Shown: one piece after another, positions 12,494 through 39,568 of the stretch
How positions within the stretch are numbered: the first letter of the stretch is position 1
Layout of the letters: each line of letters opens with the position of its first letter
The notes under the pieces: generated by a model
Database searches by the model: none
What the model was told of the DNA's origin: nothing
Seen by the model: the letters and a program-made list of their open reading frames with translations, nothing else
Assembly: GCA_052035175.1 (NCBI GenBank)
Contig: JBPOHV010000001.1
Span: 1-39,568 of the forward strand
Direction: 5' to 3'
DNA: 39,568 nucleotides
Origin: a candidate division WWE3 bacterium
GTDB lineage: Bacteria; Patescibacteriota; WWE3; UBA101185; UBA10185
Made by a program: the position numbers and the translations under genes

Positions 12494-13111
12494 TTAGCTT
12501 AGCGGGCCATCACTAGAAATACCCCGACCTGTATATATTTCTGCAAGCACATCAAAAGGAACTCTTACACTACTTCCATATATACCTATATTTCTTGGGT
12601 CGTGAATAATAAAAACTAAACCATCCTCTGTTTTTTCGAATCCTATAACTATGCACATATGACCTTCCATAGGCATTGATGCATCTATAGGCCTATATAA
12701 AACTTTCTGATCCAGATTTGAAATAGATGGTACATAAACAGAAATTACAACAGGAGTATTTACATTTAGCTTACTGATCAAAAGAGAAGGTGCACCTAAC
12801 ATGAAACTAACTACACTTTTATCAAATGACTTTGCAATCTTACATAAACCAGAATGTAACCAACCAATAGGTTCAACATAAGTTGTAGGTGTTTTAAACG
12901 AATCCATATAAACACCGCTCGATTCGACAGCGCACCCTTTATATTTCAAAAACATTAGCAAGCTAGCTATCCCACAATTTCCTGGTAAAGCAGGTATATA
13001 AGGAACGTCCAGTGTTTTGCTTTTGACGAAGGGTAGAAACATAGGCAAAATCACCGAGCGATCAATTTTAAAAATAAATGATTTTAAATATGAATAAACA
13101 AAGTTTTTCAT
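12494..13111 (-). CDS. Papain-fold peptidase C39-like protein
   Basis: Cys in NCGIASLLM, His in GHMCIVIGF, Asp in IHDP. Start moved to ATG 13111 because the longer ORF runs through tRNA-Ser. Confidence 0.75.
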   Translation of the reverse strand: MKNFVYSYLKSFIFKIDRSVILPMFLPFVKSKTLDVPYIPALPGNCGIASLLMFLKYKGCAVESSGVYMDSFKTPTTYVEPIGWLHSGLCKIAKSFDKSVVSFMLGAPSLLISKLNVNTPVVISVYVPSISNLDQKVLYRPIDASMPMEGHMCIVIGFEKTEDGLVFIIHDPRNIGIYGSSVRVPFDVLAEIYTGRGISSDGPLS

Positions 13112-13138
13112 ATAAAATAAATGCGTTGTTACACTCAA

Positions 13139-13228
13139 TGGCGGAGGGAGAGGGATTTGAACCCTCGGTGAGATTGCTCCCACACAGTCTTTCCAGGACT
13201 GCGCACTAGACCACTATGCGATCCCTCC
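13139..13228 (-). tRNA. tRNA-Ser(GGA)
   Basis: GGAGGGA/TCCCTCC acceptor, G73, encoded CCA, anticodon arm CAGTC-CTGGAAA-GACTG, long variable arm, TTCAAAT T-loop. Confidence 0.97.
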
Positions 13229-24657: not shown

Positions 24658-26241
24658 ATGGATACAAAAAACAAAAAAGCATTAATATATTGCAGGGTTT
24701 CATCAGAAAGACAGGTCAATGAAGGCCACGGACTGGATAGCCAAGAAAGTAGGTGCCGACAATACGCCGAAAACAAGGGATATGCTGTTACAGAAATCTT
24801 TCGTGACGAAGGTATTTCTGGCGGTTTGTTTGAACGCCCCGCCATGAAACAGTTAATTTCTTTCATGGATAAGACCCCTTTTGAAAAATATATAGTCATT
24901 TTTGATGACCTAACAAGATTTGCGCGTGACGTTAAAGTTCACTTGGAATTGAAACTGGCGCTTAAATCACGTGGCGCTACATTTGAATGCTTAAACTTCA
25001 ACTTCGAAGATAGCCCTGAAGGTGAATTAAGCGAAAACATTTCTATGGCTTCCGCCCAATATGAAAGGCAGAAAAACAGACGCCAAGTGATGCAGAAGCA
25101 GAAAGCCCGACTTGAAGCTGGTTATTGGTGTTTCTGTAATGCAGACGCCTTTAAATTCACCAAAGACCCCGTGCACGGGAAACTACTGGTCAGAAACGAA
25201 CCGTTCGCTTCAATTTACAAAGACGCCATTGAACAGTTTGAACAAAGAAAGTTAATAAGCAAAGAACAAGTCAAAGAATTTATCTATGCTGAATATCAAC
25301 GACTTAATTTGAAAAGAAAAAAACCCGGCAATAATACAGTTGAAAGAATACTTAAAAACCCCTTGTTCGCTGGATATGTCGAATATTTGCCTTGGGGTGT
25401 GACCAGACGACTGGGACATCACAAAGGTTTTATATCCCCTGAAACGTTTGATAATGTACAAGAAATCCTTGCTGGAAGGACTTTAAAACGTACACGCAAA
25501 GACTACAGCCTTGATTTTCCATTAAGGGGATATGTTTTATGCGCGGAATGCCAAGAACCAATTACCGCAAGTTGGTCAAAGGGAAGAACCGCCTACTACG
25601 CTTACTATTCTTGTAAAACGGTTGGTTGTAAAAACAGATATAAAACTATCAGAAAAATTAATATCGACGTGGAATTTGAAAAATTACTTGAAGAAACAAA
25701 AACGGCAGAAGAAATACTGAACCTTACAAAACGTATTATGCAAGAAGTTTGGAATAACCAAAAAGTTCAGTTTGAAAGCATAAGTTCCCAAAGCGAAGGT
25801 AAGAAACTGGCGTTACAGAAACAAATTGATGGCTTTATGGGAAGAATAGCCAATGCAACCAACGAACAGGTCATAAAGGCTTATGAAAACCAAGTGGAAA
25901 AACTGATGCAAGAAAAGACAGAACTTGAAACAGGCTTCAAACCTAATCCGTACACCGAAAGTCAGTTTGGAACCGCATTGAATAAAGTGTTTAATGTAAT
26001 ACAGAACCCCTTGTTACAGTGGAAAACCGACAATATTACGGATAAGGAAACGGTGTTAAATATGTATTTTAATGGCAAACTTAATTACGACTTAAATTAT
26101 GGGTTTGGAACCTCCACTTTGGCCCCTGAAATCAACTTAATCAAAGACTTCGGGGCACAAAAAGTTTCATTGGTGGAGATGAGGGGAATTGAACCCCTGT
26201 GTTGCAAGGCTGTTATGCAAAAGTATACAAGCTTATTCTGA
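24658..26241 (+). CDS. Large serine recombinase (integrase)
   Basis: Catalytic IYCRVSS, RPAMKQL, DDLTRFARD; recombinase domain; zinc ribbon LRGYVLCAEC...YYSCKTVGC; coiled coil. The last 23 codons are antisense to tmRNA. Confidence 0.95.
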   Translation: MDTKNKKALIYCRVSSERQVNEGHGLDSQESRCRQYAENKGYAVTEIFRDEGISGGLFERPAMKQLISFMDKTPFEKYIVIFDDLTRFARDVKVHLELKLALKSRGATFECLNFNFEDSPEGELSENISMASAQYERQKNRRQVMQKQKARLEAGYWCFCNADAFKFTKDPVHGKLLVRNEPFASIYKDAIEQFEQRKLISKEQVKEFIYAEYQRLNLKRKKPGNNTVERILKNPLFAGYVEYLPWGVTRRLGHHKGFISPETFDNVQEILAGRTLKRTRKDYSLDFPLRGYVLCAECQEPITASWSKGRTAYYAYYSCKTVGCKNRYKTIRKINIDVEFEKLLEETKTAEEILNLTKRIMQEVWNNQKVQFESISSQSEGKKLALQKQIDGFMGRIANATNEQVIKAYENQVEKLMQEKTELETGFKPNPYTESQFGTALNKVFNVIQNPLLQWKTDNITDKETVLNMYFNGKLNYDLNYGFGTSTLAPEINLIKDFGAQKVSLVEMRGIEPLCCKAVMQKYTSLF

Positions 26242-26567
26242 ATTTTCTTTTGAAGAAAAAGTTTCAGACCAACTTTTGATTTCTTCAGCAAGTAAAGTAG
26301 TTGTGCTTATTGCACTAGATAAATGTTGTTTACTAGACAACATAACCTCAAATCAGTTTTATAAGACAAATCTTTTCTCACCTGATTGAGAGAAAAGCTG
26401 CCCCCCACAAAGTGGGAATCGAAGATCTTATGCAAAAGCATAAGCCATTGCTGGTTCTTCAACTTGTGCGTATTCATTTGCACTTGTATTTGTTGAAAGA
26501 TTAACGAGGAATCAACACCTCAGCTTGCTCCTGCACAAAGAACTTACAGTCAAAGCCTGTCATCCCC
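26171..26567 (-). ncRNA. ssrA: tmRNA (one-piece, 397 nt)
   Basis: 5' GGGGATG pairs with CATCTCC-ACCA (G3:U70), T-arm AGGGG-TTCAATT-CCCCT, internal tag ORF, adjacent to smpB. Confidence 0.95.
26428..26481 (-). other. tmRNA tag reading frame (A)ANEYAQVEEPAMAYAFA*
   Basis: Resume codon GCA after TACAAGT; hydrophobic Ala-rich C-terminus; TAA stop. Confidence 0.8.
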
Positions 26568-26593: not shown

Positions 26594-27064
26594 CTAATAA
26601 GTGCGTAATTTGTCTTGGAGAGCGAGATCGCTTTTGATTTGGCGATCTTTGAGTACTTGTTTCTTTTCAAAATCTTTTTTGCCTTTTACAATGCCTACTT
26701 CGACTTTTAATAATGGCCCTTTTGTTACAAAAGATAAAGGTACGGCTGTGCGTCCTTTTTGAGAAAGCTCTGCAGATAGATGCGCGATTTCTTTTTTTGT
26801 CATCAAAAGTTTTTTGCTTTCACGAGCACGTATAGCGTCGATTTCTTGGCTCTGCTTAGAATAAGCACCTATATACATATTTACAATAAAAGCCTCGTTT
26901 CCTATAACTTTTACAAATGTACCTTCTAGATTGGCCTGGCCTTCGCGGATTGCTTTTACTTCATAACCACGCAAAACAATGCCAGCTTGGATAGTTTCTA
27001 GCACTTCGTGATTGTATAAAGCTTTGCGATTTTTTATTAAAATTCCATGTCTCAACACGTCCAT
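26594..27064 (-). CDS. smpB: SsrA-binding protein
   Basis: NRKALYNHEVLETIQAGIVLRGYEVKAIR, KKLLMTKKEI, GKKDFEKK; TGt-TAAAAT 6 nt before the ATG. Confidence 0.96.
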   Translation of the reverse strand: MDVLRHGILIKNRKALYNHEVLETIQAGIVLRGYEVKAIREGQANLEGTFVKVIGNEAFIVNMYIGAYSKQSQEIDAIRARESKKLLMTKKEIAHLSAELSQKGRTAVPLSFVTKGPLLKVEVGIVKGKKDFEKKQVLKDRQIKSDLALQDKLRTY

Positions 27065-27197: not shown

Positions 27198-28553
27198 TTA
27201 TTTCTTATCTTTTTTCTTATCGCCGCCACCGCCTACACCGAATGCTGCTTGCATTTTGGCTGGTATGCTTCTGGCAAGGCCAAGACCATATATAAGAACT
27301 AAAGGTCCAAGCAATAAAGAATAAGACAATGTTGTAAAAATAGCTGCTATATCTAGGCTAAATATCGAAATACCTATATGCCAAGCCACATTCAAAGTCA
27401 ATGAAACGACAAGTCCCATTGCAGGTATAGACAAAACATTGGCACCAAAACCTTTAAACCATTTGACCGTACCATCATTTCCAGGTAGTGCACCTAAAGC
27501 AAATGTTATAGGTGCCATTACAATTGAAACAAGTATATTGAAGTAAATCTTCACAAACTCAAACCAAACCATCAAGTATAAAAAGGCTGCAACTACACCA
27601 CCAGCTAAAACAGCGATAAATACGCCTAGACCAAGACCTGCACCCCATGGAGCTGCCAAAACAACACCAACAAGCATAAAAATAACACCTGCACCGGCAG
27701 ATGAGCTAGAAACAGCATTTAATGGTTGTGCACCAAGATTTGGAACAATATAATCGGCTACGAAAGTGTCCATGCTCCAACGCATGTTATAAGCCAAAGA
27801 AGCTCCTATCGCACCAATAGTATATGAGAAAAATATCAAGACTATAGCCACAGCAATACGTGGTAGAGCCAGTTGCACACTAACAGCTGCTTGCGCGCTG
27901 ATTTTTTTACCAGTGATTATCATGATACCCACAACCAACATTATCATAGCAATCAAAACCAAAGCGATATCTTTGGATATCTGAGCTACGCCGTAAGTAA
28001 GATCAAGAAATGGGCCAGAGTAATCTTCTGGTGCAGCAAAAGCTGTTTTTACAAAAGGAATCTTTTCTATATTACGATTCCAGGCATATGCGGCATCAAC
28101 CGGAAGGCCACCACTAATAGTATAATCTGCAACGTTTAACAAACCCAAAAGGCCACCACCACCGCTTAGATGAGCTTGTGGGTCTGAATTATTAAATACA
28201 TTTTCATCAGAAAAACCTTCCATTATGATCCTACATTCTGCCTCTGTAATAGAACACGAAGAAGGTACTTCTATGGAAGGATCTTCTGAACTTGCTTTGA
28301 GAAGTGCGCATTTTTGTACATCGCTAATATTTCTTTCAACAAAAACATGTGTAGTAGTTTCTACTATAGTAGCTATACCTGTCGTGATAAGCGTTTTACC
28401 AAGGTCACTACCTGGTACAGAGTTGGTTATCGAATTGTATATATCTTCTCTTCCGGTACAACTACCAGTAAATGCATATGCACTGGGCAACACATGGGCT
28501 AAAGTGAAAAGAAAAATAAATGCGTAAATTACAGATTTTTGTAGTTTGTTCAT
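27198..28553 (-). CDS. VirB6/TrbL-like polytopic membrane protein
   Basis: Signal-like N-terminus, soluble region, then many TM helices including GIMIITGKKI...LALPRIAVAIVLIFFSY; next to the pilin array. Confidence 0.55.
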   Translation of the reverse strand: MNKLQKSVIYAFIFLFTLAHVLPSAYAFTGSCTGREDIYNSITNSVPGSDLGKTLITTGIATIVETTTHVFVERNISDVQKCALLKASSEDPSIEVPSSCSITEAECRIIMEGFSDENVFNNSDPQAHLSGGGGLLGLLNVADYTISGGLPVDAAYAWNRNIEKIPFVKTAFAAPEDYSGPFLDLTYGVAQISKDIALVLIAMIMLVVGIMIITGKKISAQAAVSVQLALPRIAVAIVLIFFSYTIGAIGASLAYNMRWSMDTFVADYIVPNLGAQPLNAVSSSSAGAGVIFMLVGVVLAAPWGAGLGLGVFIAVLAGGVVAAFLYLMVWFEFVKIYFNILVSIVMAPITFALGALPGNDGTVKWFKGFGANVLSIPAMGLVVSLTLNVAWHIGISIFSLDIAAIFTTLSYSLLLGPLVLIYGLGLARSIPAKMQAAFGVGGGGDKKKDKK

Positions 28554-28620: not shown

Positions 28621-31600
28621 ATGGCATTGCATCCAAATCCAAATTATCAAAGCAAGCATTACACAGGTAAACCTATCTCTTTAGAGCTTTGGGAAAACAT
28701 ATTTGGTAATTGGGGAAAAGAGCTTACGGCTGGGATGCGCCCAAAAATCACAGCTAAAGGTAAATCAGAAGATTATGCTGTCATAGAAGCATATGAATAC
28801 AAAAATGGTAAAGCTAGCTTAGAAGAAGTTTTTGAAGAGCCTGGTGTTAAGTTGGTTGTTGAATTAGATACTGCAATCACCAACCCAGCGCAATTTATCA
28901 AAAAAACAGCTGAACAAAGTATTAAACAAGTGTTTTACCCCAAAGACCTTGATTCTGGGATGCAGCAAGATATTTGGAAAAAAATATTAAGCGGAGAATC
29001 TACAGGTATAGCCGGCGAAGAATACTTTAAACGGATTGTCCAGGGCAAAGACCAAGTCAACCTTTCACTCAAAGATATACCAGTTACAAAAAAAGTCATA
29101 AGTACATTTTATGTAGGTAAAGCCAACGGTAAATTTGAAAAAGTAGAAGAAGAAAGCCAAGAAGGTATATACGGGCATCTGGCCAATACATATACAAGTG
29201 CCATCACAGGAATGGCAAGTAAAGAAAATAGAAATGCTGCAATGCGCAAATGGCAAGCAGAAACTTTGGGGGATTTGTCTGAAGAACTTCAACAAAAGAT
29301 ACGCGCAGGTAAATTGCGTGCAGATTCTCCAGAAGTAAAATTGATCCTCGCTCAAAATAAAATAGCAAACTCAATGGGAAGCATAAGCTCTGATATAAGC
29401 AAGGTAGCTTCTGGCGCGAGCAGTTTGCGCATGATCACATCACCACTTGCTTCTGACAAAGTTAAAGCCAAAGCAAAATGGCAAATGACTGACACCACGA
29501 GAAGTACCTTACAACAAGTTACTGACGGGAAATTAACACTCGCCGACGCTATAAAACAAGGACTGCTTGATGCAGAATCGAATGTAGTACAAGCATATGC
29601 TGCACAACAAAAACTAACCGCAACTATCGCAGCATCTCAAAAAGAACTCAAAGATTTGGCCGCACAATTCAAAGGTACGCAATATGCAACTCAATTTGAA
29701 AAAGCTACAAGAGAACATGCCAGATATTTGGAAAATTTGAGTAAAAAAGTAAACGGCGTAAAAGTAGAAGATTTTGGCACTGGGCAATATGTGATATATG
29801 GTGGAAGCTTAAAAGCTTATTTGCATGATCTTGAAAATGCTAACTTTGAAGGCGGTATAAGAGACAGATTTTTAAATAGAACACACGATGTACTGAGCTG
29901 CAACAATGTAAAGATACGACAAATACTAGACAGTACTGAAGGTGCTCCAACTATAAATAGATTATCTCGCGTTTTGAGAACACGCTACAGAAGTGGGGCG
30001 CTCGACGATTTGAATGATGATATAGCTGAAGGCGCAGGTGGTGTATTTAATACATTTGTTCTTTCGAAATATCAACACAGACTAGCTATATTTGGTCCTC
30101 CAAAAATCCTAAAAGACTTTTTAGTTAAAACACATTATTTTGGCCTTAACTACGAAGAAGATGGCGATGAAAAATATGCGCGTTTAGTACCTTTACATAA
30201 ATTTAATTTAGACGTATTAGGAGATATAGTAAAAGTTACCGGTGGCTCTCATTTTGCAGGATCTATAGAACTTTATAAATTGTTAGCTACCGGACAACTC
30301 AATGGATTGCGTATAAAAACTGAAGGTAAAGACTTTAACCCAATTGCCAATTTTTCATCAATTGCACACGGAAAAGATTTACTTAGCTTATTAAACGGAA
30401 AAGCCATTGACGGTTTGAAATTGACCGATGTAAAAGGATTTCAAGGTAAAGTTGGCGGTTTTAGAAAATGGGTACTAGATAATGCATCTAAATTGGGTAT
30501 AACACTCAAAAACGGCGAGATAGAAAGCACGCTAGAAAATTCTAATAGACTAATCTCAATCATAAATCAAACGACGCGCAGAGAATTTGACCACACATTG
30601 CTTAACGCAACACAAATGAGAGTTGGCTTATTAGAAAGATACACATCATTTTTGGGACAAGGGCAAGCAAAAATGTATCAACTGCTCAATGCCGTTGGAA
30701 TTGGAAAATATGTAAAAAGCTATACATATTATAAAGAAGCAATTGCTGTAGCAATTTCAAGCTTTTTGAAAGCTGCTGCGGGAACAGTATCAGGCGGTAC
30801 AGCGGCTGTATTCTTGAATTGGGTCTTTGACTATATCGGACATACTGTAGTCAAAATGGGAGAAGGCTTTATAAAAGCGCTAAATCCACTCGTCGAAGGC
30901 GATTTCGGAACTGTCTTCAAAAACATTGAACGTACAATAGATGGTGCGGTAGATATCGTAATAAAAGTCTTTATGATTCCACTCGGAATTATATTTGTTT
31001 TCTCATTTTTATATGTCAGTTCGATCTTTTCTTTGGTAAATCCAGCTGATCCAGCGCGTGCTACTACATTTAAAGAACTCGACCTTGGCGGGAGCTATCC
31101 TATACCTCCTAACATTGAAGCGTGTATTGGTGATGCTGATGATGGAGGGCTTGCAGAACTTTCTGGAGGAGGAGGCGTTGCCGACGAAGCAAAATCAATA
31201 GCATCTGGGCTGTTACGCGGGTTTTGGTGCTTTTGGAATCACCACCCAAGCTATGATCCAGAATTTTGGAATCAAGCAGTATTTGATGCAAACCCAAGCC
31301 CAGGGTCTGACTTTAGCTGCGGAAATTGTTTATTTTGGTGTACAGCTTTACCTATCAAAGCTTATGATGGAGCCATACCAGGAGATTTATTGAATTCTCA
31401 GTCTATGGCTGAATTTTTTGGATATCAAAATGATGACGTTACAAGTACATCTGCGGACGGCACGCGGGTATTTATTGCAAATAATGCAGCAGGTATGGAG
31501 GTATACCAGCCTCAGCCGGGCGATGTCATCTTCTTTAGAACACCTTTGCGCCAATATTACCGTATAGCTCACGTAGCAATGGTGTATTCGTATCAAGCAG

Positions 31601-31740
31601 GCGTTGCTATGGAATCTGTACATTCAAATTCTTACTACAAACGCTTCACATACACTGTAAATGGAGATGGTGTTGTCCAAGACTACGCAATAGGCGGAGA
31701 CACTGTACAAGAAGTAATTGGTTTTGGAAGATTTTTGTAA
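28621..31740 (+). CDS. 1039-aa protein: long N-terminal region, TM segments, C-terminal CHAP/NlpC-P60-like domain
   Basis: FWCTALP (Cys), QPGDVIFF, AHVAMV (His), HSN. Start moved to ATG 28621 to avoid overlap with the divergent gene. Confidence 0.65.
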   Translation: MALHPNPNYQSKHYTGKPISLELWENIFGNWGKELTAGMRPKITAKGKSEDYAVIEAYEYKNGKASLEEVFEEPGVKLVVELDTAITNPAQFIKKTAEQSIKQVFYPKDLDSGMQQDIWKKILSGESTGIAGEEYFKRIVQGKDQVNLSLKDIPVTKKVISTFYVGKANGKFEKVEEESQEGIYGHLANTYTSAITGMASKENRNAAMRKWQAETLGDLSEELQQKIRAGKLRADSPEVKLILAQNKIANSMGSISSDISKVASGASSLRMITSPLASDKVKAKAKWQMTDTTRSTLQQVTDGKLTLADAIKQGLLDAESNVVQAYAAQQKLTATIAASQKELKDLAAQFKGTQYATQFEKATREHARYLENLSKKVNGVKVEDFGTGQYVIYGGSLKAYLHDLENANFEGGIRDRFLNRTHDVLSCNNVKIRQILDSTEGAPTINRLSRVLRTRYRSGALDDLNDDIAEGAGGVFNTFVLSKYQHRLAIFGPPKILKDFLVKTHYFGLNYEEDGDEKYARLVPLHKFNLDVLGDIVKVTGGSHFAGSIELYKLLATGQLNGLRIKTEGKDFNPIANFSSIAHGKDLLSLLNGKAIDGLKLTDVKGFQGKVGGFRKWVLDNASKLGITLKNGEIESTLENSNRLISIINQTTRREFDHTLLNATQMRVGLLERYTSFLGQGQAKMYQLLNAVGIGKYVKSYTYYKEAIAVAISSFLKAAAGTVSGGTAAVFLNWVFDYIGHTVVKMGEGFIKALNPLVEGDFGTVFKNIERTIDGAVDIVIKVFMIPLGIIFVFSFLYVSSIFSLVNPADPARATTFKELDLGGSYPIPPNIEACIGDADDGGLAELSGGGGVADEAKSIASGLLRGFWCFWNHHPSYDPEFWNQAVFDANPSPGSDFSCGNCLFWCTALPIKAYDGAIPGDLLNSQSMAEFFGYQNDDVTSTSADGTRVFIANNAAGMEVYQPQPGDVIFFRTPLRQYYRIAHVAMVYSYQAGVAMESVHSNSYYKRFTYTVNGDGVVQDYAIGGDTVQEVIGFGRFL

Positions 31741-31769: not shown

Positions 31770-32240
31770 ATGGAAAGCCTAATAGAATTTGTAAATAAAA
31801 AATGGAAATACTTGTTAGTTATTTGTGGTGCATCCCTTTTGATATATGTGGTCGTAAACTTCTTTACAACAAAAGCTCCTTTGCAATCAAAGCCGTCAAG
31901 CGATCAAGTGTACAGTGTTGAAACACAAAACCAAATACAAAAAAAGCAGCTACAGCAAATAAACTATAGCAGTCCGACAATAATGGAACGTATTGAAGAT
32001 CAAAATATTGGTGACACATTTTTTAGCGAGTCTGGTAAACAAATGGCAGATGCTTATCCTTGGTTTAGAGACATACCTATCTATGCAGATACTTACACGG
32101 TAGTTTTTGATTATGAACAACAAAAATTTAGAATAGTTGTAAAGCCAGGGGCTGATAAACCAACTGCCACAAGCAACGCACTTCAAGCGTTGAGAGATAT
32201 AGGAGTTCAGATAACCGCCACAAATTATTATGTTCAATAA
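31770..32240 (+). CDS. N-terminally anchored hypothetical protein
   Basis: Single TM at residues ~12-32, then a soluble domain. Confidence 0.65.
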   Translation: MESLIEFVNKKWKYLLVICGASLLIYVVVNFFTTKAPLQSKPSSDQVYSVETQNQIQKKQLQQINYSSPTIMERIEDQNIGDTFFSESGKQMADAYPWFRDIPIYADTYTVVFDYEQQKFRIVVKPGADKPTATSNALQALRDIGVQITATNYYVQ

Positions 32241-32306: not shown

Positions 32307-32729
32307 TTATTTAGACGTGTAAGCCGTAACCAACTCTTCCAGCTTGGTCGCAGCTGCATCAAAGACTTCAGAAAATGTAGAAAAATAGCTTAAACCCAAA
32401 GAAGTCACAATAATTGAATAAATAGCTGCAAAACCCACAATTACTAAAAACCCATAAATAACATACGTCCAATTGGCACTTGCTGCTTTGAGACCTTCAG
32501 GGTTACCCATAGCTAAAGACATCTTTATAACTCCTACCAGAATCATTATTGTTAAAAGAACACCAGCCAAAAGTATGGCTGCATTAAATACTCTTTTGAA
32601 TGGGCACACCAAATATTCTGCGGGTATATCCTCATCGAGCGGAATAGTATTGCAATCAACAGCTGCAAATGCAACGCGCATATTCAAAAGCATTATAAAA
32701 AACATTAATGTATATAATATTTTTTTCAT
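32307..32729 (-). CDS. VirB2/TrbC-like pilin 5
   Basis: Signal peptide ending AFA, then TM - AMGNPEGLKAA - TM. Start MKKILY at 32729. Confidence 0.7.
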   Translation of the reverse strand: MKKILYTLMFFIMLLNMRVAFAAVDCNTIPLDEDIPAEYLVCPFKRVFNAAILLAGVLLTIMILVGVIKMSLAMGNPEGLKAASANWTYVIYGFLVIVGFAAIYSIIVTSLGLSYFSTFSEVFDAAATKLEELVTAYTSK

Positions 32730-32733
32730 AGAT

Positions 32734-33057
32734 TTAAAATCCAGGTGTACTGCTATTAATCTCGGCTGTTTGTACACCGATTGATTGTAAAATAGCGCCT
32801 TTTACAGACAACACACCTATAGAAACACACGCAGCAATTATACCCAAAATAAAGGCATTCCACGCTACTTCTGTTTTCTTTGGGTCACCTTCGCTGTGAG
32901 AATATAAAATTGCTGAATAAGCGATACTCATAATACCTATACCAAAACCAAGACCCATAAATAAATTTATCAACAAACCAGAAATGCCTGAGATTGTACT
33001 CAATGGTTCTGGATTTGGTACTCCGCTGCCTGTTAATGTATCAATAAGTTTATCCAT
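32734..33057 (-). CDS. VirB2/TrbC-like pilin 4
   Basis: TM - SEGDPKKTEVA - TM. Confidence 0.7.
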   Translation of the reverse strand: MDKLIDTLTGSGVPNPEPLSTISGISGLLINLFMGLGFGIGIMSIAYSAILYSHSEGDPKKTEVAWNAFILGIIAACVSIGVLSVKGAILQSIGVQTAEINSSTPGF

Positions 33058-33063
33058 ATAATT

Positions 33064-33609
33064 TTAATTTGGCTCACATGTACAACAATGTCCTGTCGTG
33101 CCACCCATGCAATTCTGTTCACAATAAGTATCAAAGTCACAAACTAAATGAAAACCTTGCACGCATTGAGGTTCAAAGCCTGGACAAGCACAAACCGAAT
33201 TCTCACAAGTAATTTGGCCTCCGCCGCCTCCGCCACCACCACCGCCGCCCCCGCTTGTAGATTGATCTTCACCTTCAAAGTTGGTTATACCGTTAATAAT
33301 AAACGTACCGCTATTAGTACCGAGTCCTTGAGGAATGTAGGCTTTAAAAGTCATTACAAAAAAGAGCATAACACCACCAACAACAGCGTAGGCGATTTTA
33401 TTTATACCCTTTTTAACATTGTCTGGAGTGCCTTGCGACACAATAAGTGCATCTATACCAAGAGCAATTTGATAAAAAACCAATGCCCACCCGATATAAA
33501 TAATCGCGCTTATAATAAATCCAAGTATATTCGCAATAGATAAAAACCTGCCGCCTAAAGGATCTACTATCGCATCTCCTAAGGCAGCAAGTCGAAATAG
33601 TCCATACAT
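33064..33609 (-). CDS. VirB2/TrbC-like pilin 3 with a Gly12 linker and a 10-Cys C-terminal domain
   Basis: TM - SQGTPDNVKKG - TM, then 12 Gly and 10 Cys in the last ~50 aa. Confidence 0.72.
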   Translation of the reverse strand: MYGLFRLAALGDAIVDPLGGRFLSIANILGFIISAIIYIGWALVFYQIALGIDALIVSQGTPDNVKKGINKIAYAVVGGVMLFFVMTFKAYIPQGLGTNSGTFIINGITNFEGEDQSTSGGGGGGGGGGGGQITCENSVCACPGFEPQCVQGFHLVCDFDTYCEQNCMGGTTGHCCTCEPN

Positions 33610-33624
33610 ATAATAATTACGCTA

Positions 33625-33670
33625 ACAAAGAGAAACAAACAGCCGTACCGAGCAGAATACTAGGTACGGT
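33625..33670 (-). terminator. Putative terminator/attenuator after pilin 2
   Basis: CCGTACC/GGTACGG stem (33643-33649, 33663-33669) followed on the minus strand by CUGUUUGUUUCUCUUUG. Confidence 0.5.
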
Positions 33671-33675
33671 TGTTG

Positions 33676-34023
33676 TTAATTTGTACCTGTACCACCAAAG
33701 TCTGTAACTCCGGTTAACTCCAAACTTCCACCGACGAGTTGAGGAATGATTACCTTCAAAACTCCGACGAAGAATAAGCCAACACCACCGACTATTGCGT
33801 AAGTTACCCATTGTTGAGCAGCATTAACTGCTTTTTCATCGCCTTTGGACATAACGTATTGAGCAAAACCAAATGCCAACATTACGAAAACCAAAGCCCA
33901 ACCTACGTAAATGATTGTATTGATAATAAAACCAAATATTGCAGAAAGGCTACCAAAACGATCTGTGAATGTTGGAACTGCTACTGGTATTGCATCTGCT
34001 AATTTAAATAAAGAATTCAACAT
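33676..34023 (-). CDS. VirB2/TrbC-like pilin 2 (candidate major pilin)
   Basis: TM - SKGDEKAVNAA - TM; upstream AAGGGGGTG SD-like sequence. ATG 34023 aligns with the start of its paralog at 33609. Confidence 0.75.
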   Translation of the reverse strand: MLNSLFKLADAIPVAVPTFTDRFGSLSAIFGFIINTIIYVGWALVFVMLAFGFAQYVMSKGDEKAVNAAQQWVTYAIVGGVGLFFVGVLKVIIPQLVGGSLELTGVTDFGGTGTN

Positions 34024-34056
34024 ATTGTTTATGTACACCCCCTTTTAACATTAAAT

Positions 34057-35139
34057 TTATGACGTACCGCCTAATACTGTGCTTATTATAATTCTTAATA
34101 TAGCTACTGACAACAACAAGAAAATCACTCCAAGGATTGCACTTGTCAGAGATCCCTGGCATTCTTGGACTTTCTTTGGATCACCCTGACTTGTACCCAA
34201 ACACCAGCCTGACTTTACAATATAAAATCCACCAATTGCCAAACCTGCAGGGAATAAAATAGAACCAACGGTTTGTAAAAATTCAAAAGGATCAACTATT
34301 TTAAATTCTGGATTAATACCAGGGAAAGGGTCACCAGGATTTCCCCCACCACCACCACCGCCACCACTTGAGTCATAAACACATTGCAATAATGTAGTGC
34401 CACAAGAACCATTATAAACTGGCTCACAATTATAATTCTCAGCGCAATCTCCTTGACCGCTACATTGGTCAAAACATTCAGCTACAGTACAATCATTGAA
34501 ACCCTCAGGACACTCATCTGGATAAACCATGCCACAAATAGAACCACCAGAACAATCTTCAGGACCATCACAACGATCTTCACAGCTAGCTTCTACCTGC
34601 ATACAACGTAAATAGGTATTTGGTGGTGCTGTACAACCCAATGTACCAGCATTAACCTGCATACACTCTTCAAAAGGATCCGGGCATGTAGAATCATCAT
34701 ACAGAACACATTCATCACTGCACATACTGCCATTACCAATTACGCACTCATAGTGAGGGTTTGCGCACGACACACCTGGTGCTACTAAATCACAATGATA
34801 AGGTGCTGTGCATGTATCTGGGTTAGTACCACAGCTATCTTCGCATTCACCGGGGGCTATAGGAAAACACTGATCTGTAAAATCATTAACACATACACCA
34901 TCTTGACAATAATCACCATTGTCGCAACAAGTACCAGAGCATGTCTCAAAATTACCACTACACCCAGATTCCATACAACCTGCAGTTGTGCAAACCTCTC
35001 CTGCTGCGCATTCTGGTGAACCGCACACACCAATAACATCGCAAGGATCACCATCTGCAGCGTACACGTTATTTGTAAAAATAAACAAGCCTGCAACTAC
35101 CAATAAGCTAATAAATATTTTGTATCTTTTATTCGTCAT
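34057..35139 (-). CDS. VirB2/TrbC-like pilin 1 with a 36-Cys N-terminal region and Gly8 linker
   Basis: Signal peptide (VYA), Cys-rich residues 33-253, 8 Gly, then TM - SQGDPKKVQEC - TM. Confidence 0.75.
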   Translation of the reverse strand: MTNKRYKIFISLLVVAGLFIFTNNVYAADGDPCDVIGVCGSPECAAGEVCTTAGCMESGCSGNFETCSGTCCDNGDYCQDGVCVNDFTDQCFPIAPGECEDSCGTNPDTCTAPYHCDLVAPGVSCANPHYECVIGNGSMCSDECVLYDDSTCPDPFEECMQVNAGTLGCTAPPNTYLRCMQVEASCEDRCDGPEDCSGGSICGMVYPDECPEGFNDCTVAECFDQCSGQGDCAENYNCEPVYNGSCGTTLLQCVYDSSGGGGGGGGNPGDPFPGINPEFKIVDPFEFLQTVGSILFPAGLAIGGFYIVKSGWCLGTSQGDPKKVQECQGSLTSAILGVIFLLLSVAILRIIISTVLGGTS

Positions 35140-35744
35140 AATAAATTAAACTCTCTTACCCAAGTATTGGCAGTCTGCGCGACATATTCACGCGTGCCAA
35201 ATACATAATATAAACTATACGGGTCTATACCCATTCCTTCAATCCTTTTTTTCATAAATTCAAATGCCTCGACAAATGCTTTTGCGTTGGGATTCTTAGT
35301 AACATCTGAAGAAGCTTGATTATAATTTATACCTGCAAGTTCCATACGTACCAAATAATCTGGATCTTTAGGAAAAGTAAACATTACCAAAGTCAATCTC
35401 ATACCATTGGAAGCAATGAAATCTACATTAATAGGTAAACTTGGCATCAATAAAGCTTTTGCTACACGCGCTTCTTCGTAAGTTGGGGGCGTAGGCGACT
35501 CATATGTAGTAAACAAATCTGGATTTTTTTCAATAAACTTCTCGGTACTATTTACAGGGATATCGTTCTTTTCGGCTTGTTGCCTCTCGATTTGAGATGT
35601 GAAAGGCGTATCTGCAACTGGTAGATTAGTCTTTTTATTTCTAGAAACAAGTACTACTACAAAAACAGATAAAATAACTATCCCTACGATATAAATGTAT
35701 CTCGAAGGCGTTTTATATAATTGTTTTACTCCACCAAAGTTCAT
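35136..35744 (-). CDS. N-terminally anchored hypothetical protein
   Basis: Single N-terminal TM and soluble domain; 4-bp overlap with pilin 1. Confidence 0.65.
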   Translation of the reverse strand: MNFGGVKQLYKTPSRYIYIVGIVILSVFVVVLVSRNKKTNLPVADTPFTSQIERQQAEKNDIPVNSTEKFIEKNPDLFTTYESPTPPTYEEARVAKALLMPSLPINVDFIASNGMRLTLVMFTFPKDPDYLVRMELAGINYNQASSDVTKNPNAKAFVEAFEFMKKRIEGMGIDPYSLYYVFGTREYVAQTANTWVREFNLL

Positions 35745-35747
35745 ATA

Positions 35748-38624
35748 TTAATTAGCGTTAGGGTTCCCACCCAACATTTGGAAGAAAGTCATAGCAGCAG
35801 TAAGAGCACCAGGGCTTTCGTATTCAAGAGGTGATGGGCATGCTGGCCACATACTATGCGCACTATTAGCTTCATCTGCACAAAATAAATCTGCTCTAGT
35901 ACCATCTGTTGGATAAATAAGAGACATATTGCCGTATCTTGGAGAATATTTATTCATAGCATAAGTATTATCTTCACCCAAATAAAATTCTGGGCAATGG
36001 TCATAACCTGTAACCGCAGCAATAAGTGGCGGATCATATGCACTCCATGGGCCTTTCCAATCGCATTGTGCATTACCAGGACCATTATACTTTTCAAATC
36101 CACCTATAATATCTTCGACAGTCCACGAGCCTGGCTCACCACCGACTAAACTTTTAAAATATCCCATATAAGTAGCTGCATCTTCGGGCAAATCGGCCTC
36201 AGAAATATCATGGCCATCTTTCAAAGAAAGATAAGGCTTATTGCCACCTTCTCTAAAATGAATTGCTGCAGCAATTATACAAGGAACGCCAGTTTGTTCT
36301 TCGGCATATGCATACGCTTGTGCAACTTGATCGGTGTATGGCGCAATAGGTGTACTGCCTACATAATTAAACGCATCGGGCAACGTAGATCGTGAGAGTA
36401 TTTCTTCAAAAGAAGTTTTATCACATATGCCAGAGATTTCTGGTCCTGTGTATGGGTTGATCATTATTGGAAGTAAATCTTCTGGTTCTTCAGTTGTCGG
36501 CATACGCTTTGCAAAACGCATACTATCGGTGTTGGCAGTACCCTGAACCGGGCTCGAAATACCATATTTTATTTCTTGTGTATTAGGACCACTGTTTGTA
36601 ACATCACTTTTTGCAAAAGCTGTACCACCAATACTATTCTTTGATTCATAAGGAACAGTAAACATGTCTTTTATGCCCTGAGTTGTATACCCAATACTTT
36701 CACCAGAAGTTCCTTGGATCTTGGTCTCGGCTGACATGGTGACACCAATAGTTCCATCGCATGTATATGCATAAATAGGTATTTGACCTACAGTTGTGCA
36801 GTTAGTGCTACCTGGGGGATCGCAAACTACAGTTTCTTCACAATATTCCAGATTACCGCACCCGCCAGCTTGATCTTCATAATGGTCTAGTGGTACACAG
36901 CTTTCACCCAAATTGTCATATACGTTGGGCAAAGCTACTTGGAATTGCGCTAAAACATTTGCAAATAAGTTCGCCAAAGCACCAGATAAACCTACACCAT
37001 AAAATGTGTTGGGGCTTGGAGTTTGCTCGGTTGTTATTTTATAACCAGAAGAAGTAGGATGACCTTCCAAGCCATATGCAGGCTCTGGCATGCTGCATGC
37101 CCCACCCTCTAATGTCGAACAAGTACAATGCACACTACCTATGCCCAAGCGACTAATACCTGGAACAGTACCCGCTAAAATAATTTGACTTTGTAATCCT
37201 CCAGATGTTGGAAAAGCAAAATTACCAGAGACCGATGCAGCAACATATTCTGTTTCTGCGTCACCGGGATGCACTATGTAATTACAAGCGTTAAATGGCT
37301 TATCTGCAATGGCACTAGTAGCCGTCAATTCTCGGCAATCTTCTCCATCGTTACCACCAAAATTATATGCAGAGTCTGTAGTTCCTTTATACTTTTGCTT
37401 TGTGGTACTAAGCTTTTTCGTCAAATCTATATTTCTACTGATCTCGTATACACGTTGAAAAGGAAAATCTGGATCTCCGTATTCAAATTGCGCTAGTTTT
37501 TTTACAGAACCGCCAGAAACACATATCTCAGTTGAGTTTTTCACAGCTTCAGGAATAGCTTCAAACATTTCTTGTATTTCACCTGGAAATGCCATACCTG
37601 CAGCAAGTCCAGCAACATTTGCATAATTGAAATTTGGATCACCGCCAGTACTTACAAGTTTGTAACCCGCAGTTATAGTCGAACAATAAGGTAATGGTGG
37701 ATTACCGCCTTCGCCTTCTTTAATAACCTTTTGTGGGATATAACCAGGATTAAACAACTGGTCTGCAGCCAATGTACCACGACGATCGTCTAAAAATTTT
37801 AAACTATGCCTACCTTCAATCGGCTGACTAGTAGCTTGCGTTAACTCGGATGGAACATCGTCAGGGTTTATATCATTTGGATCAAATGTGTTATCTCCAC
37901 TAGAAAACACTTCATCTAAATAACTTACAAAGTGAGAAAAATTTGCATATTTATCAGAAAGTGGGCCTGATGCCCCACCAACAGCGCGATCAACACCACA
38001 TTGTAAATACCCATCTTCATCAACATAACCCAACGGTGCCGGTGCGAGTGTATCTAGTGCTACACTGCTGGTAACTGCATACTCTTGGCAAGGAACACCC
38101 ATGTTAAACGAACCCTCACTCAAAGAGACTGTGTCTACTTTGAATAAATCTACTAAATATTTTTTCTGACCATCTGGTGTAACACAAAATACACCTAAAT
38201 AATTGTTGATACTGCTCTTTCTAATAGGGATCATGAACTCACCTTCATTATTTGACCAAACCTGTACATAAGGCTTGTCTAATGATCCTGTTAATACTTC
38301 TTCATATGTTGTAAAAAACACACCTTTCACGGGCTCACCTGGCTTTTTAAACCCTTTCGCCTGTAAAAACGGATCGTCAGGCTGCACACTATAAGTACGA
38401 CCGCATAAAAATATGTGTGTTAATGGACTAAACTGCTGAACACCCCAGTCCATATAACCTGCCAAAAGTAGCTTACCTTTTTCTGAATCTGGATCTGGGC
38501 AATACCTACCAGATACAAAATAATCTGGTACCTGCAACTCCACAGGTGCAGCATGCGCAAATACTGGTGTAAATACAAATGTAAGTATAAGTAAAGATAA
38601 TGAAATGAAAAAAGATTTCTTCAT
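35748..38624 (-). CDS. 958-aa secreted protein with a C-terminal lysozyme/lytic-transglycosylase-like domain
   Basis: Signal peptide (AHA), many Cys, AYAYAEEQTGVPCIIAAAIHFREGG and later KYNGPG resembling the SLT/GH23 core. Confidence 0.55.
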   Translation of the reverse strand: MKKSFFISLSLLILTFVFTPVFAHAAPVELQVPDYFVSGRYCPDPDSEKGKLLLAGYMDWGVQQFSPLTHIFLCGRTYSVQPDDPFLQAKGFKKPGEPVKGVFFTTYEEVLTGSLDKPYVQVWSNNEGEFMIPIRKSSINNYLGVFCVTPDGQKKYLVDLFKVDTVSLSEGSFNMGVPCQEYAVTSSVALDTLAPAPLGYVDEDGYLQCGVDRAVGGASGPLSDKYANFSHFVSYLDEVFSSGDNTFDPNDINPDDVPSELTQATSQPIEGRHSLKFLDDRRGTLAADQLFNPGYIPQKVIKEGEGGNPPLPYCSTITAGYKLVSTGGDPNFNYANVAGLAAGMAFPGEIQEMFEAIPEAVKNSTEICVSGGSVKKLAQFEYGDPDFPFQRVYEISRNIDLTKKLSTTKQKYKGTTDSAYNFGGNDGEDCRELTATSAIADKPFNACNYIVHPGDAETEYVAASVSGNFAFPTSGGLQSQIILAGTVPGISRLGIGSVHCTCSTLEGGACSMPEPAYGLEGHPTSSGYKITTEQTPSPNTFYGVGLSGALANLFANVLAQFQVALPNVYDNLGESCVPLDHYEDQAGGCGNLEYCEETVVCDPPGSTNCTTVGQIPIYAYTCDGTIGVTMSAETKIQGTSGESIGYTTQGIKDMFTVPYESKNSIGGTAFAKSDVTNSGPNTQEIKYGISSPVQGTANTDSMRFAKRMPTTEEPEDLLPIMINPYTGPEISGICDKTSFEEILSRSTLPDAFNYVGSTPIAPYTDQVAQAYAYAEEQTGVPCIIAAAIHFREGGNKPYLSLKDGHDISEADLPEDAATYMGYFKSLVGGEPGSWTVEDIIGGFEKYNGPGNAQCDWKGPWSAYDPPLIAAVTGYDHCPEFYLGEDNTYAMNKYSPRYGNMSLIYPTDGTRADLFCADEANSAHSMWPACPSPLEYESPGALTAAMTFFQMLGGNPNAN

Positions 38625-38682
38625 GTGCCTGTATTATATCAACATAGTATAATGAACGGGTAGAGAAAAGGTCAAACCTCTT

Positions 38683-39568
38683 ATGTCAACTGCTCAAAAG
38701 ATTTTCAAAAAGATAATACTTTTATCACTCATAGTATTTATTGCTGTTGCAACAACCAATTTAAAAAGTGTTTTTGCAAATGGCTGTGACGCAATATCAG
38801 ATATAGATGACAAAGCCGAATGCCTTGAAAAAGAAATAGCAGAAAAAGAAAAGGACTATGAATCTACAAGCAAAAAACTCGAAGATATACGTAAAGATAA
38901 AGATGAAGTCAATAAACAAATCGCAAACTTGGCAGGTCAACTAAATGTTACACAAAGCCAAATAGACGATTTGGCAAAAAAGATAGCTGATATGCAAAAG
39001 GCTTTGGAAGAAATCCAAACCAATCTAACAGATCGTCGGGTAAAATTGAGCGATAAAATAGATTTGCGAAACAGAGTCATCAGAAACTATTCAAAACGTG
39101 GACACCTAAGTGATTTTGATTTGATATTTGGTGGGAATTTCCAATTGGCTTCAACAACCGAAATGTTTAACCAAAAAGTAACTTCAGAAACCCTTAAAAT
39201 AATAGGAGCACTAAACTCAGAAATCACAAGCTTCGAAAACGACAAAAAAGAAGCAGAAGATATCAAAGTCGAGCTTGTTACATCACAAAACAACTTAATC
39301 GCTGCAAAAGTAGAAATGGATAACAAAAAATTGGCAGCACAATCAGAGTTTAATGTTTTATCGTCATCAGAAGAAGACCACGAAGAAGAGTTAGAAGAAA
39401 TTGAGAGAGAAATAGCCGAGTTATCAAAAAAACAACAAGAAATACTAAATCAAAAGTCAGGAGATAGTAGCGGATCTGTAGGTGACTATGAGTCTCCAGA
39501 TGCAAACGTACCAAACCCACCTTTCAAACCTGCGTTTGCAGCATTTAGTTATGGTGCATACACACATT
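38683..39568 (+). CDS. Secreted coiled-coil protein, probably SpoIID/LytB-type (3' truncated by the window)
   Basis: Open frame from ATG 38683 to the window end: signal peptide, long heptad coiled coil, then PAFAAFSYGAYTH. Confidence 0.6.
   Translation, partial: MSTAQKIFKKIILLSLIVFIAVATTNLKSVFANGCDAISDIDDKAECLEKEIAEKEKDYESTSKKLEDIRKDKDEVNKQIANLAGQLNVTQSQIDDLAKKIADMQKALEEIQTNLTDRRVKLSDKIDLRNRVIRNYSKRGHLSDFDLIFGGNFQLASTTEMFNQKVTSETLKIIGALNSEITSFENDKKEAEDIKVELVTSQNNLIAAKVEMDNKKLAAQSEFNVLSSSEEDHEEELEEIEREIAELSKKQQEILNQKSGDSSGSVGDYESPDANVPNPPFKPAFAAFSYGAYTH

Follow-up and report, generated by a model that had tools for sequence, protein, structure and literature searches.

Cysteine-Rich Domains Fused to VirB2-Like Pilins in a Four-Class Array of a Candidate Division WWE3 Bacterium

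Chromosomal tandem arrays of VirB2-like genes have been described in Patescibacteria that comprise 2-11 divergent two-helix pilins (PF18895) and are associated with type IV secretion systems (T4SS) of the MPF-FATA-like kind (PMC10633639, PMC12102498). Such arrays are essential in S. epibionticum and a role in host adaptation has been suggested for them (PMC10633639, PMC12102498, PMC12857230). The published pilins (Wang et al. 2023; Quinonero-Coronel et al. 2025) are presented as small proteins whose divergence between paralogues could provide host-range versatility, and a 2024 perspective calls the role of the T4SS in Saccharibacteria 'completely unknown' (PMC11665869). Here we analyze a stretch of 39,568 nucleotides (nt) of the low-GC (~37%) bacterial chromosome of a candidate division WWE3 bacterium (assembly GCA_052035175.1, contig JBPOHV010000001.1, positions 1 to 39,568), hereafter the window, which contains an array of five two-helix VirB2-like pilin genes (P1 to P5) of four classes. 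Like the arrays already described, this one consists of several pilin genes, five in this case, and its flanking genes are those of arrays located beside PrgI and VirB4. It differs from them in that four orthologous classes can be distinguished, in that the variability is concentrated in a cysteine-rich outer domain of the class-1 pilin, referred to as the passenger, and in that the window array is detached from VirB4.

The window pilins resemble the TraA/VirB2/TrbC proteins (PF04956), hairpins of ~70-90 amino acids (aa) in which two long hydrophobic helices are joined by a short polar loop and preceded by a leader peptide. The canonical proteins differ in lacking any folded passenger, and both VirB2 and TrbC are trimmed and cyclised. 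In the pED208 F-pilus, the N-terminus of the pilin extends out of the subunit (PMC5018250). Monoderm VirB2-like proteins of the PrgF type, encoded beside a VirB6-like gene, have been proposed to assemble on a VirB6 pentamer into a pilus or conduit that spans the wall (bioRxiv 10.64898/2025.12.18.695078), and they share with the window pilins their small size, two transmembrane (TM) segments and a place in the T4SS of monoderms. Neither four-class arrays nor passenger domains are described in that study, and since its search was restricted to proteins of 50-150 aa, fusions such as P1 would have been filtered out. The minor pilins of type IV pili (CofB/TcpB, PilY1-type), low-abundance subunits that carry a tip domain on a flexible linker and serve in binding, offer a functional analogy only, as their pilin superfamily is unrelated, has one N-terminal helix, uses a prepilin peptidase and is assembled by another machine. 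Finally, the large extracellular Cys-rich proteins of Peribacteria are exported, strain-variable and proposed as attachment factors (PMC4736985); these are free proteins of ~1,650 aa with ~7% Cys that lack any attached T4SS pilin core. The arrays as such are already published. No description of the fusions was found in open-access text, where no paper combining Patescibacteria, 'cysteine-rich' and pilin turned up, and passenger domains, Cys-rich fusions and glycine tethers are not mentioned in the accessible text of PMC10633639, PMC12102498 and PMC12857230.

P1, the class-1 pilin, is a protein of 360 aa encoded on the minus strand at 34057-35139, as are all the parts described in this paragraph. 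It begins with a Sec-type signal peptide (aa 1-27; 35059-35139), read from the sequence as MTNKRYKIFISLLVVAGLFIFTNNVYA followed by AD, which overlaps a hydrophobic segment at residues 7-28 and an AlphaFold2 helix at residues 4-23. The passenger follows (aa 28-258, 231 aa; 34366-35058), with 36 Cys and a net charge of -39. The whole protein has 38 Cys, and the count of 36 within residues 33-253 (16.3% Cys) given in the original prediction, a model's reading of the letters, was reproduced; compared with a background of 1.15% in the other open reading frames (ORFs) of the window, this enrichment has a binomial p of 6e-30. The same residues hold 38 D+E versus 2 K+R. Four tandem six-Cys modules (aa 99-139, 140-185, 186-221 and 222-258; 34366-34845) open with C-x-D-x-C, and both the motifs (CEDSC, CSDEC, CEDRC and CFDQC, starting at residues 99, 140, 186 and 222) and the span from C99 at nt 34845 to C253, which ends at nt 34381, are exactly those predicted. 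Common to the four is the spacing C-x3-C-x5-7-C-x5-6-C-x7-9-C-x6-9-C; a search for DNA-level repeats among them found none, and their duplication is accordingly old. A tether of eight glycines (Gly8; aa 259-266; 34342-34365), encoded by an imperfect GGN trinucleotide run, leads to the VirB2-like core (aa 267-360; 34060-34341), whose helices 284-316 and 321-356 are joined by the loop TSQGDPKK and whose TM segments lie at 290-308 and 327-360. The translation thus confirms the predicted order of Cys domain, Gly8 and pilin core. Two further Cys flank the inter-helix loop of the core (GWC...QEC; residues 313 and 327; 34159-34203) and are absent from the orthologues.

The identification of these proteins as homologues of VirB2-type T4SS pilins, also part of the original prediction, is upheld by profile homology through relatives of the core. 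An exhaustive phmmer search with P1 retrieved 584 representative proteins at E <= 0.001, mainly via residues ~285-358, and the family statistics given here rest on the best 150 of these. PF18895 (T4SS_pilin) was matched by 149 of the 150 (best E 1.5e-11) and the TrbC/VirB2 family PF04956 by 23 (best E = 1.5e-6). The class formed by P2 and P3 can be aligned with many proteins annotated as PF18895, and a word-indexed search of 5.8 billion proteins with the whole of P1 returned one relative, again via the core. AlphaFold2, run for P1 on the 150-sequence alignment, yields a helical-hairpin core with a predicted local distance difference test score (pLDDT) above 90; in P3, helices 25-57 and 62-95 form a core at pLDDT 70-89, and the tethers are modelled as disordered (pLDDT <50 at residues 261-267 of P1 and 113-134 of P3). 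The predicted topology of P1 consists of the signal peptide and two TM segments enclosing a net-positive loop, with acidic flanks. Signal peptide, hydropathy and charge fit a hairpin with both termini outside, so that, in agreement with what had been proposed from the letters, both Cys domains are predicted to lie outside the cytoplasm.

The claim that orthologous cores would carry variable modules holds for P1, as the passengers of its relatives differ completely in length and sequence. Among the best 150 relatives the core is always C-terminal; more than 60 residues precede it in 108, of which 102 have at least six Cys there (median 14% Cys; maximum 64 Cys in 574 aa). Of these Cys-rich passengers 88 are net acidic, and of the 76 sequences that are complete, 55 have an even number of Cys (p = 6e-5), which is what pairing into disulfides would produce. 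All-versus-all BLAST gave significant matches for every pair of cores (5151/5151, median identity 49%) and for 71 pairs of passengers (1.4%), the best E-value of the P1 passenger against the 101 others being 0.005. Two relatives, P0123 and P0126, have cores that are 78% identical, similar signal peptides and unrelated passengers, a six-Cys module in the first and a Gly-rich, Cys-free sequence in the second. In the syntenic orthologues of P1 the passenger is lacking or measures ~40, ~95, ~215 (P0002, with five C..CC..C..C..C modules) or ~330 aa, and the linker from the last Cys to the core is elsewhere ~11 residues long and rich in Pro, Gly, Asp and Thr. A repeated C-x-D-x-C motif occurs in P1 only among the 102 Cys-rich relatives, and a hidden Markov model of the module recovered its own four P1 copies only when run against all fetched proteins. 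It should also be mentioned that some passengers are not Cys-rich or are mixed, with a GH42-like glycosidase domain or with beta-rich parts ahead of Cys modules (P0279, P0224, P0163 and the protein at 4222-5517 of locus L008); the GH42-like domain of P0279 has a Pfam E of 6e-8, and the scaffold would thus also display enzymes. These data support a swappable surface display domain for P1, which is the class-1 member of a large, apparently undescribed family with a conserved core and a variable outer domain.

The second fusion is of opposite polarity. P3 (181 aa; 33064-33609, minus strand) has its core first, then twelve glycines (Gly12; aa 120-131; 33217-33252, minus strand), also encoded by an imperfect GGN run, and a C-terminal 10-Cys domain (aa 132-181, 50 aa; 33067-33216, minus strand) of net charge -6, an order again confirmed from the translation. 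Its Cys enrichment over the same 1.15% background has a p of 3e-10. At 43% identity to P2, P3 represents a class-2 duplicate that has since diverged. In the six reading frames of the window, Gly8 and Gly12 are the only glycine runs of at least five residues, and both sit exactly at the junction of pilin core and Cys domain. A second public assembly is identical over 15.5 kb, and with this identity and the extreme p-values, an assembly artefact or chance was rejected as the origin of the fusions. Among the 102 Cys-rich relatives a glycine run of this length is found in P1 only, and the poly-Gly tether is, from the sequences compared, peculiar to the window genome and not a trait of the family. 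A Cys-rich C-terminal domain was found in no class-2 pilin of eight loci or of 120 listed relatives, nor in the five loci recovered by a metagenome scan with the P2/P3 core, the closest case being a short tail with three Cys (P0106). The P3 fusion therefore appears to be lineage-specific.

Regarding the array as a whole, its gene order, from class 1 to class 4, is the same in eight loci. Class 1 (P1-like) is marked by a loop TSQGDP..QE followed by LTSAI.G. Class 2 (P2-like) occurs in one to three copies with a core, GWALVFVMLALGFVQYVMSRGEKTAVE.AQKWLTYAVIGGVGLFF, that is nearly invariant in most metagenomic relatives; in the window it comprises P3 and P2, a Cys-free protein of 115 aa from its ATG (33676-34023, minus strand; a GTG ORF reaches 34038). 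Class 3 corresponds to P4 (107 aa; 32734-33057, minus strand), which matches the NCBIfam Mbov_0395 pilin-like family at E = 2e-4 and whose orthologues occupy the same array position elsewhere. Class 4 corresponds to P5 (140 aa from MKK; 32307-32729, minus strand), with a signal peptide, a two-Cys loop, the core and an amphipathic C-terminal tail. Members of class 2, and the cores of class 1, are on average 47-48% identical among themselves, those of classes 3 and 4 32-36%; five of the six between-class comparisons in the window give ~25-28%, and the 41% between the class-1 core and P2 refers to a short, end-gap-free overlap. Class 2, best conserved together with the class-1 core, is likely to provide the major subunit, which would be P2 in the window. 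The constant order of four conserved classes points to a hetero-oligomer whose members have set roles, and hardly to a collection of antigenic variants that could replace one another. The class-2 leader is conserved as well. It is 8-10 aa long without a basic n-region, M(x)SL(I/L)(E/Q)KV(Y/H)A followed by A or Q, and is seen in L001, L003, L005-L009 and in the window, where P2 (33676-34038) begins with MLNSLFKLADA and P3 with MYGLFRLAALGDA; being unlike the Sec signal peptides of classes 1 and 4, it may mark a dedicated cleavage or an unusual insertion route.

The nearest loci are found in candidate division WWE3 genomes and other Patescibacteria. A cassette made of a SpoIID-like gene, the pilin array, a small TM protein, a hydrolase of ~1000-1200 aa and a polytopic protein of ~450 aa is present in L001, L003, L008, L009 and L010; L006 has the SpoIID-like gene and the array only, followed by the contig end, and a contig scan of genomes with the 451-aa polytopic protein of the window gave two WWE3 loci only. 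In L003 and L010 the ~450-aa polytopic gene is directly followed by PrgI/VirB3, a TraC-like protein and a VirB4-like ATPase (PF19044, E = 7e-27). The same cassette adjoining PrgI/VirB3 and a VirB4 ATPase in two related genomes suggests that the window array is T4SS-associated. The L003 cluster also adjoins dnaN, in agreement with the origin-proximal location published as frequent for Patescibacterial T4SS genes (PMC12102498).

The interpretation that we favour, with moderate confidence, is that this region is the pilin array of a monoderm-type Patescibacteria T4SS in which P1 and P3 display Cys domains, the P1 passenger serving in host recognition. P1 would be inserted by Sec, and its 231-aa acidic passenger would fold and oxidise outside the membrane, while the hairpin core would join, or cap, the T4SS filament or conduit. 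The class-2 polymer may grow on a VirB6-like platform, after the proposal for monoderm PrgF-type pilins. Gly8 would give the passenger reach and freedom of orientation. P1 would be placed at the tip or sparsely spaced, since a passenger of ~25 kDa could not sit on every subunit of a tightly packed filament; on purely steric grounds, P1 is thus a plausible minor pilin. P3 would be a class-2 copy whose C-terminus, facing outward, acquired the Gly12 tether and a mini-domain of 10 Cys, placing a second, smaller domain on a shaft-type subunit. Adhesin and host-recognition roles, which we infer, are a step from an exported variable domain: the class-1 core is conserved and the passenger is replaced wholesale, so that the passenger is most likely the specificity-determining part contacting the target. 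It would bind a surface component of the partner cell, which for a bacterium presumed to be episymbiotic would be its host, and a new passenger would mean a new specificity.

Several observations weigh against this interpretation. All the window pilins score below the gathering threshold of PF18895 (26.6 bits), with 20.5 bits for P1 (residues 286-349), 14.3 for P3, 23.4 for P4 and 22.7 for P5, and no match for P2. Foldseek comparison of the P1 and P3 models with the PDB gave only generic helical hairpins, all at E > 0.8, the A. pernix conjugation pilus (8dfu) appearing only at rank 50, and a PDB profile search with the pilin cores found no pilin; its matches to de novo designed helical repeats were rejected as convergence on a common 'GDPK' turn. 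A TM hairpin being a generic fold, these searches are uninformative, and membership rests on profile homology and gene context. The modelled P1 passenger has a pLDDT <50 for most of its length, the exception being a beta hairpin in module 4 (pLDDT 70-80), and the P3 domain, for which a beta hairpin is modelled at pLDDT 52-75, is without comparative support. The passenger or the P3 tail may also be removed proteolytically, as RP4 TrbC and VirB2 lose C-terminal residues during maturation. Concerning the machine, there is no VirB4, PrgI or VirD4 in the window or within 10 kb of P1, and smpB, the transfer-messenger RNA (tmRNA) gene and a serine recombinase occupy the PrgI/VirB4 position, so that the ATPase half must be elsewhere or lost; a rearrangement in this genome may have separated the PrgI-VirB4 part from the pilins. 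Disulfide bonding is suggested by export, by the even Cys counts and by the enrichment in Candidate Phyla Radiation (CPR) genomes of an MdbA-like oxidoreductase, often adjoining VKOR (bioRxiv 10.1101/335083). The strong disulfide-forming capacity that the original prediction called for accordingly has a reported counterpart in the CPR and none in the window, where no disulfide oxidoreductase is encoded. Finally, according to reviews, no T4SS pilus has been imaged in any Patescibacterium (PMC12857230).

Some of these points would be accommodated if the hairpin were a mere membrane anchor, P1 and P3 being surface proteins that hold Cys-rich ectodomains at the membrane or the wall and never polymerise; 'pilin' would then be no more than an annotation. 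The generic fold without specific structural match to solved pilins, the missing VirB4 next to the window array and the pilus never imaged according to PMC12857230 speak for such an arrangement, and passengers of up to 574 aa, or including a GH42-like domain as in P0279, would be hard to fit in a filament. Nevertheless, it explains neither the profile-level homology to TrbC/VirB2 nor the strict co-location with PrgI, VirB4 and the VirB6-like candidate in L003 and L010. Moreover, four conserved classes in fixed order suggest a hetero-oligomeric assembly, and the monoderm PrgF-type VirB2-like proteins have genetic support for a pilus or conduit. We therefore regard a simple anchor as unlikely.

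A different function for the Cys-rich parts has to be weighed with the fold of their modules. The four modules of P1, each with six Cys in 36-46 aa, have the size of a knottin (six Cys in about 30-45 aa), a property that is necessary and far from sufficient for that fold. Defensins and knottins (Defensin_2, Gamma-thionin) are likewise made of six-Cys modules of ~35-45 aa, and the match to them comes via the orthologue P0123, whose module reaches 20.4 bits with Defensin_2, equal to the gathering cut-off, matches four related defensin families and has defensin-type proteins as 17 of its 19 weak PDB matches. The WWE3 locus L003 has two defensin-like C..CxxxC..GxC..CxC modules (weak match), and one relative matches the scorpion calcine knottin family. 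On this basis the Cys-rich parts could be toxin- or defensin-like cargo, released or presented at the tip to damage or permeabilise the host envelope, in which case the Gly tracts would be spacers or sites of processing; proteolytic trimming is indeed known for canonical VirB2 and TrbC. However, neither P1 nor P3 of the window matched the defensin signature or the defensin profiles, and the window modules and P3 domain match no such family; they are strongly acidic and tethered to a membrane protein. The P1 passenger matched no Pfam family at E <= 10 and has one insignificant PDB match (E = 0.13), and no Pfam or PDB match was obtained for the P3 domain, so no toxin family is represented among them. 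The net charge of -39 of the P1 passenger is also unlike that of most membrane-active defensins, the cluster contains no dedicated peptidase gene, and the short P/G/T-rich linkers of the relatives show no conserved cleavage motif. Such cargo seems rather improbable for these proteins. The same searches bear on the suggestion that the modules are EGF-like or bind Ca2+: a motif scan of the P1 passenger found no cbEGF, LDLa or TSP3 motif, no C-x-C, no CxxC and two His, so the EGF-like and Ca2+-binding readings, for the second of which acidity speaks, are unsupported, and metal clusters are unlikely.

It has also been considered that the passengers are structural, either protease-resistant acidic spacers through the wall or S-layer or a shield around the filament, their variability reflecting weak constraint. 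Indeed, in most passengers nothing but acidity and a richness in Cys and Gly is apparent and no binding domain can be recognised, a passenger is lacking in several orthologues, and the core of P0126, which is close to the P0123 core, carries a segment rich in Gly and free of Cys. We give this possibility little credence, because up to 64 Cys and even Cys counts imply folded domains under selection, because wholesale replacement beside a conserved core is the pattern typical of receptor-binding modules, and because enzyme-like and beta-rich passengers occur. Lastly, cysteines that are not paired in disulfides and serve as metal ligands (zinc, iron-sulfur or metallothionein-like), an idea prompted by the very high Cys density and by the anoxic water in which many CPR bacteria live and where disulfide formation is harder, were rejected as highly improbable, given the lack of CxxC or CxC pairs, the two His of the P1 passenger, its export by a Sec signal peptide, the even Cys counts and the MdbA/VKOR-type oxidase enriched in the CPR.

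Returning to the array and its surroundings, P1-P5 are the distal part of a tight operon-like run on the minus strand (32307-38624), with intergenic gaps of -4 to 66 nt. The apparent operon starts with a secreted protein of 958 aa and 24 Cys (35748-38624, minus strand), without usable match in Pfam or PDB sequence searches, and continues with a membrane-anchored protein of 202 aa (35136-35744, minus strand) whose stop overlaps the start of P1 by 4 nt. These two genes, located between the SpoIID-like gene and P1, are private to this genome, with no counterpart in L001, L003 or L010; apparently co-transcribed with the pilins, their products could be a further surface or tip component. Divergently, a secreted coiled-coil protein (38683-39568, plus strand, running off the window end) is homologous to the SpoIID-domain proteins flanking the array in every related locus, and could take part in the system by remodelling the wall. 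The 958-aa gene is preceded by a promoter-like site (38646-38675), and a terminator-like hairpin lies at the end of P5 (32298-32319, minus strand; a consensus match only). The best sigma-70-like match of the region (11/12 positions) is at 34085-34113 on the minus strand, within the 3' end of P1 and just upstream of P2, where it could conceivably raise expression of the putative major pilin; promoter-like sites are fewer in the region than in its shuffled versions.

On the other side of the array, a single-pass membrane protein of 156 aa (31770-32240, plus strand) is conserved in position only. It is preceded by a protein of ~1040 aa (28621-31740, plus strand; a 1064-aa ORF from 28546) that contains a membrane segment and, at its C-terminus, a CHAP-like hydrolase region, matched weakly in Pfam (E = 0.015); nothing else usable came from the Pfam and PDB sequence searches. 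It is homologous to a 1115-aa protein of L001 (13851-17198 of that locus) that ends in an M23-like HxH motif (HIHME) and, its locus position being conserved, is a candidate VirB1-type wall hydrolase. In this ~1000-aa protein beside the array, the long N-terminal part and the membrane segment are kept and the C-terminal hydrolase domain is swapped between genomes, CHAP-like in the window and M23-like in L001. The adjacent polytopic membrane protein of 451 aa with a signal peptide (27198-28553, minus strand) has no usable Pfam or PDB sequence match, is 32% identical to a 455-aa protein of L001, and is a candidate VirB6-like partner.

Beyond it lie smpB (26594-27064, minus strand), the adjoining tmRNA gene (26171-26567, minus strand) and a large serine recombinase (24658-26241, plus strand) that overlaps the tmRNA 3' end. 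The recombinase/tmRNA region and the hypothetical ORFs at 20.5-24.1 kb may represent an element inserted at ssrA. That a mobile element brought in the array itself seems unlikely: the recombinase lies beyond ssrA/smpB and the cassette is syntenic in several genomes. In L010 and L011, smpB (plus a resolvase in L011) is found on the opposite side of the T4SS cassette. The window also encodes mutS, mutL, rpoD, dnaG, smpB, the tmRNA and five tRNAs. A peptidase C39-like ORF (12494-13183, minus strand), taken from a GTG, overlaps tRNA-Ser(GGA) (13139-13228, minus strand) by ~45 nt, and its true start is probably further downstream.

The family-level finding on class 1 is of more interest than the window's own tethers. 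Tentatively, it can be proposed that the class-1 core is a natural display scaffold used across hundreds of lineages, which would present interchangeable disulfide-rich domains at an essential pilus tip, ranging between a lone defensin-like fold and domains of more than 570 aa and 64 Cys, and in which cassette exchange would set the host cell that an episymbiont attaches to or feeds from. The window would then be an extreme form, with its private C-x-D-x-C family, its poly-Gly tethers and a second site on a duplicated shaft pilin. VirB2-type pilins, usually viewed as bare ~70-aa peptides, now include passenger-bearing forms, and surveys of small proteins (e.g., with a 50-150 aa filter) miss such members. 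These passengers also suggest that bacteria encode many disulfide-rich mini-domains, in part defensin-like, which annotation has passed over. In the only Patescibacterium open to genetic manipulation, both the T4SS and its pilin array are essential. A conserved core joined to an exported, presumably disulfide-rich domain of extreme variability has the features expected of a determinant of host specificity in ultra-small epibionts.

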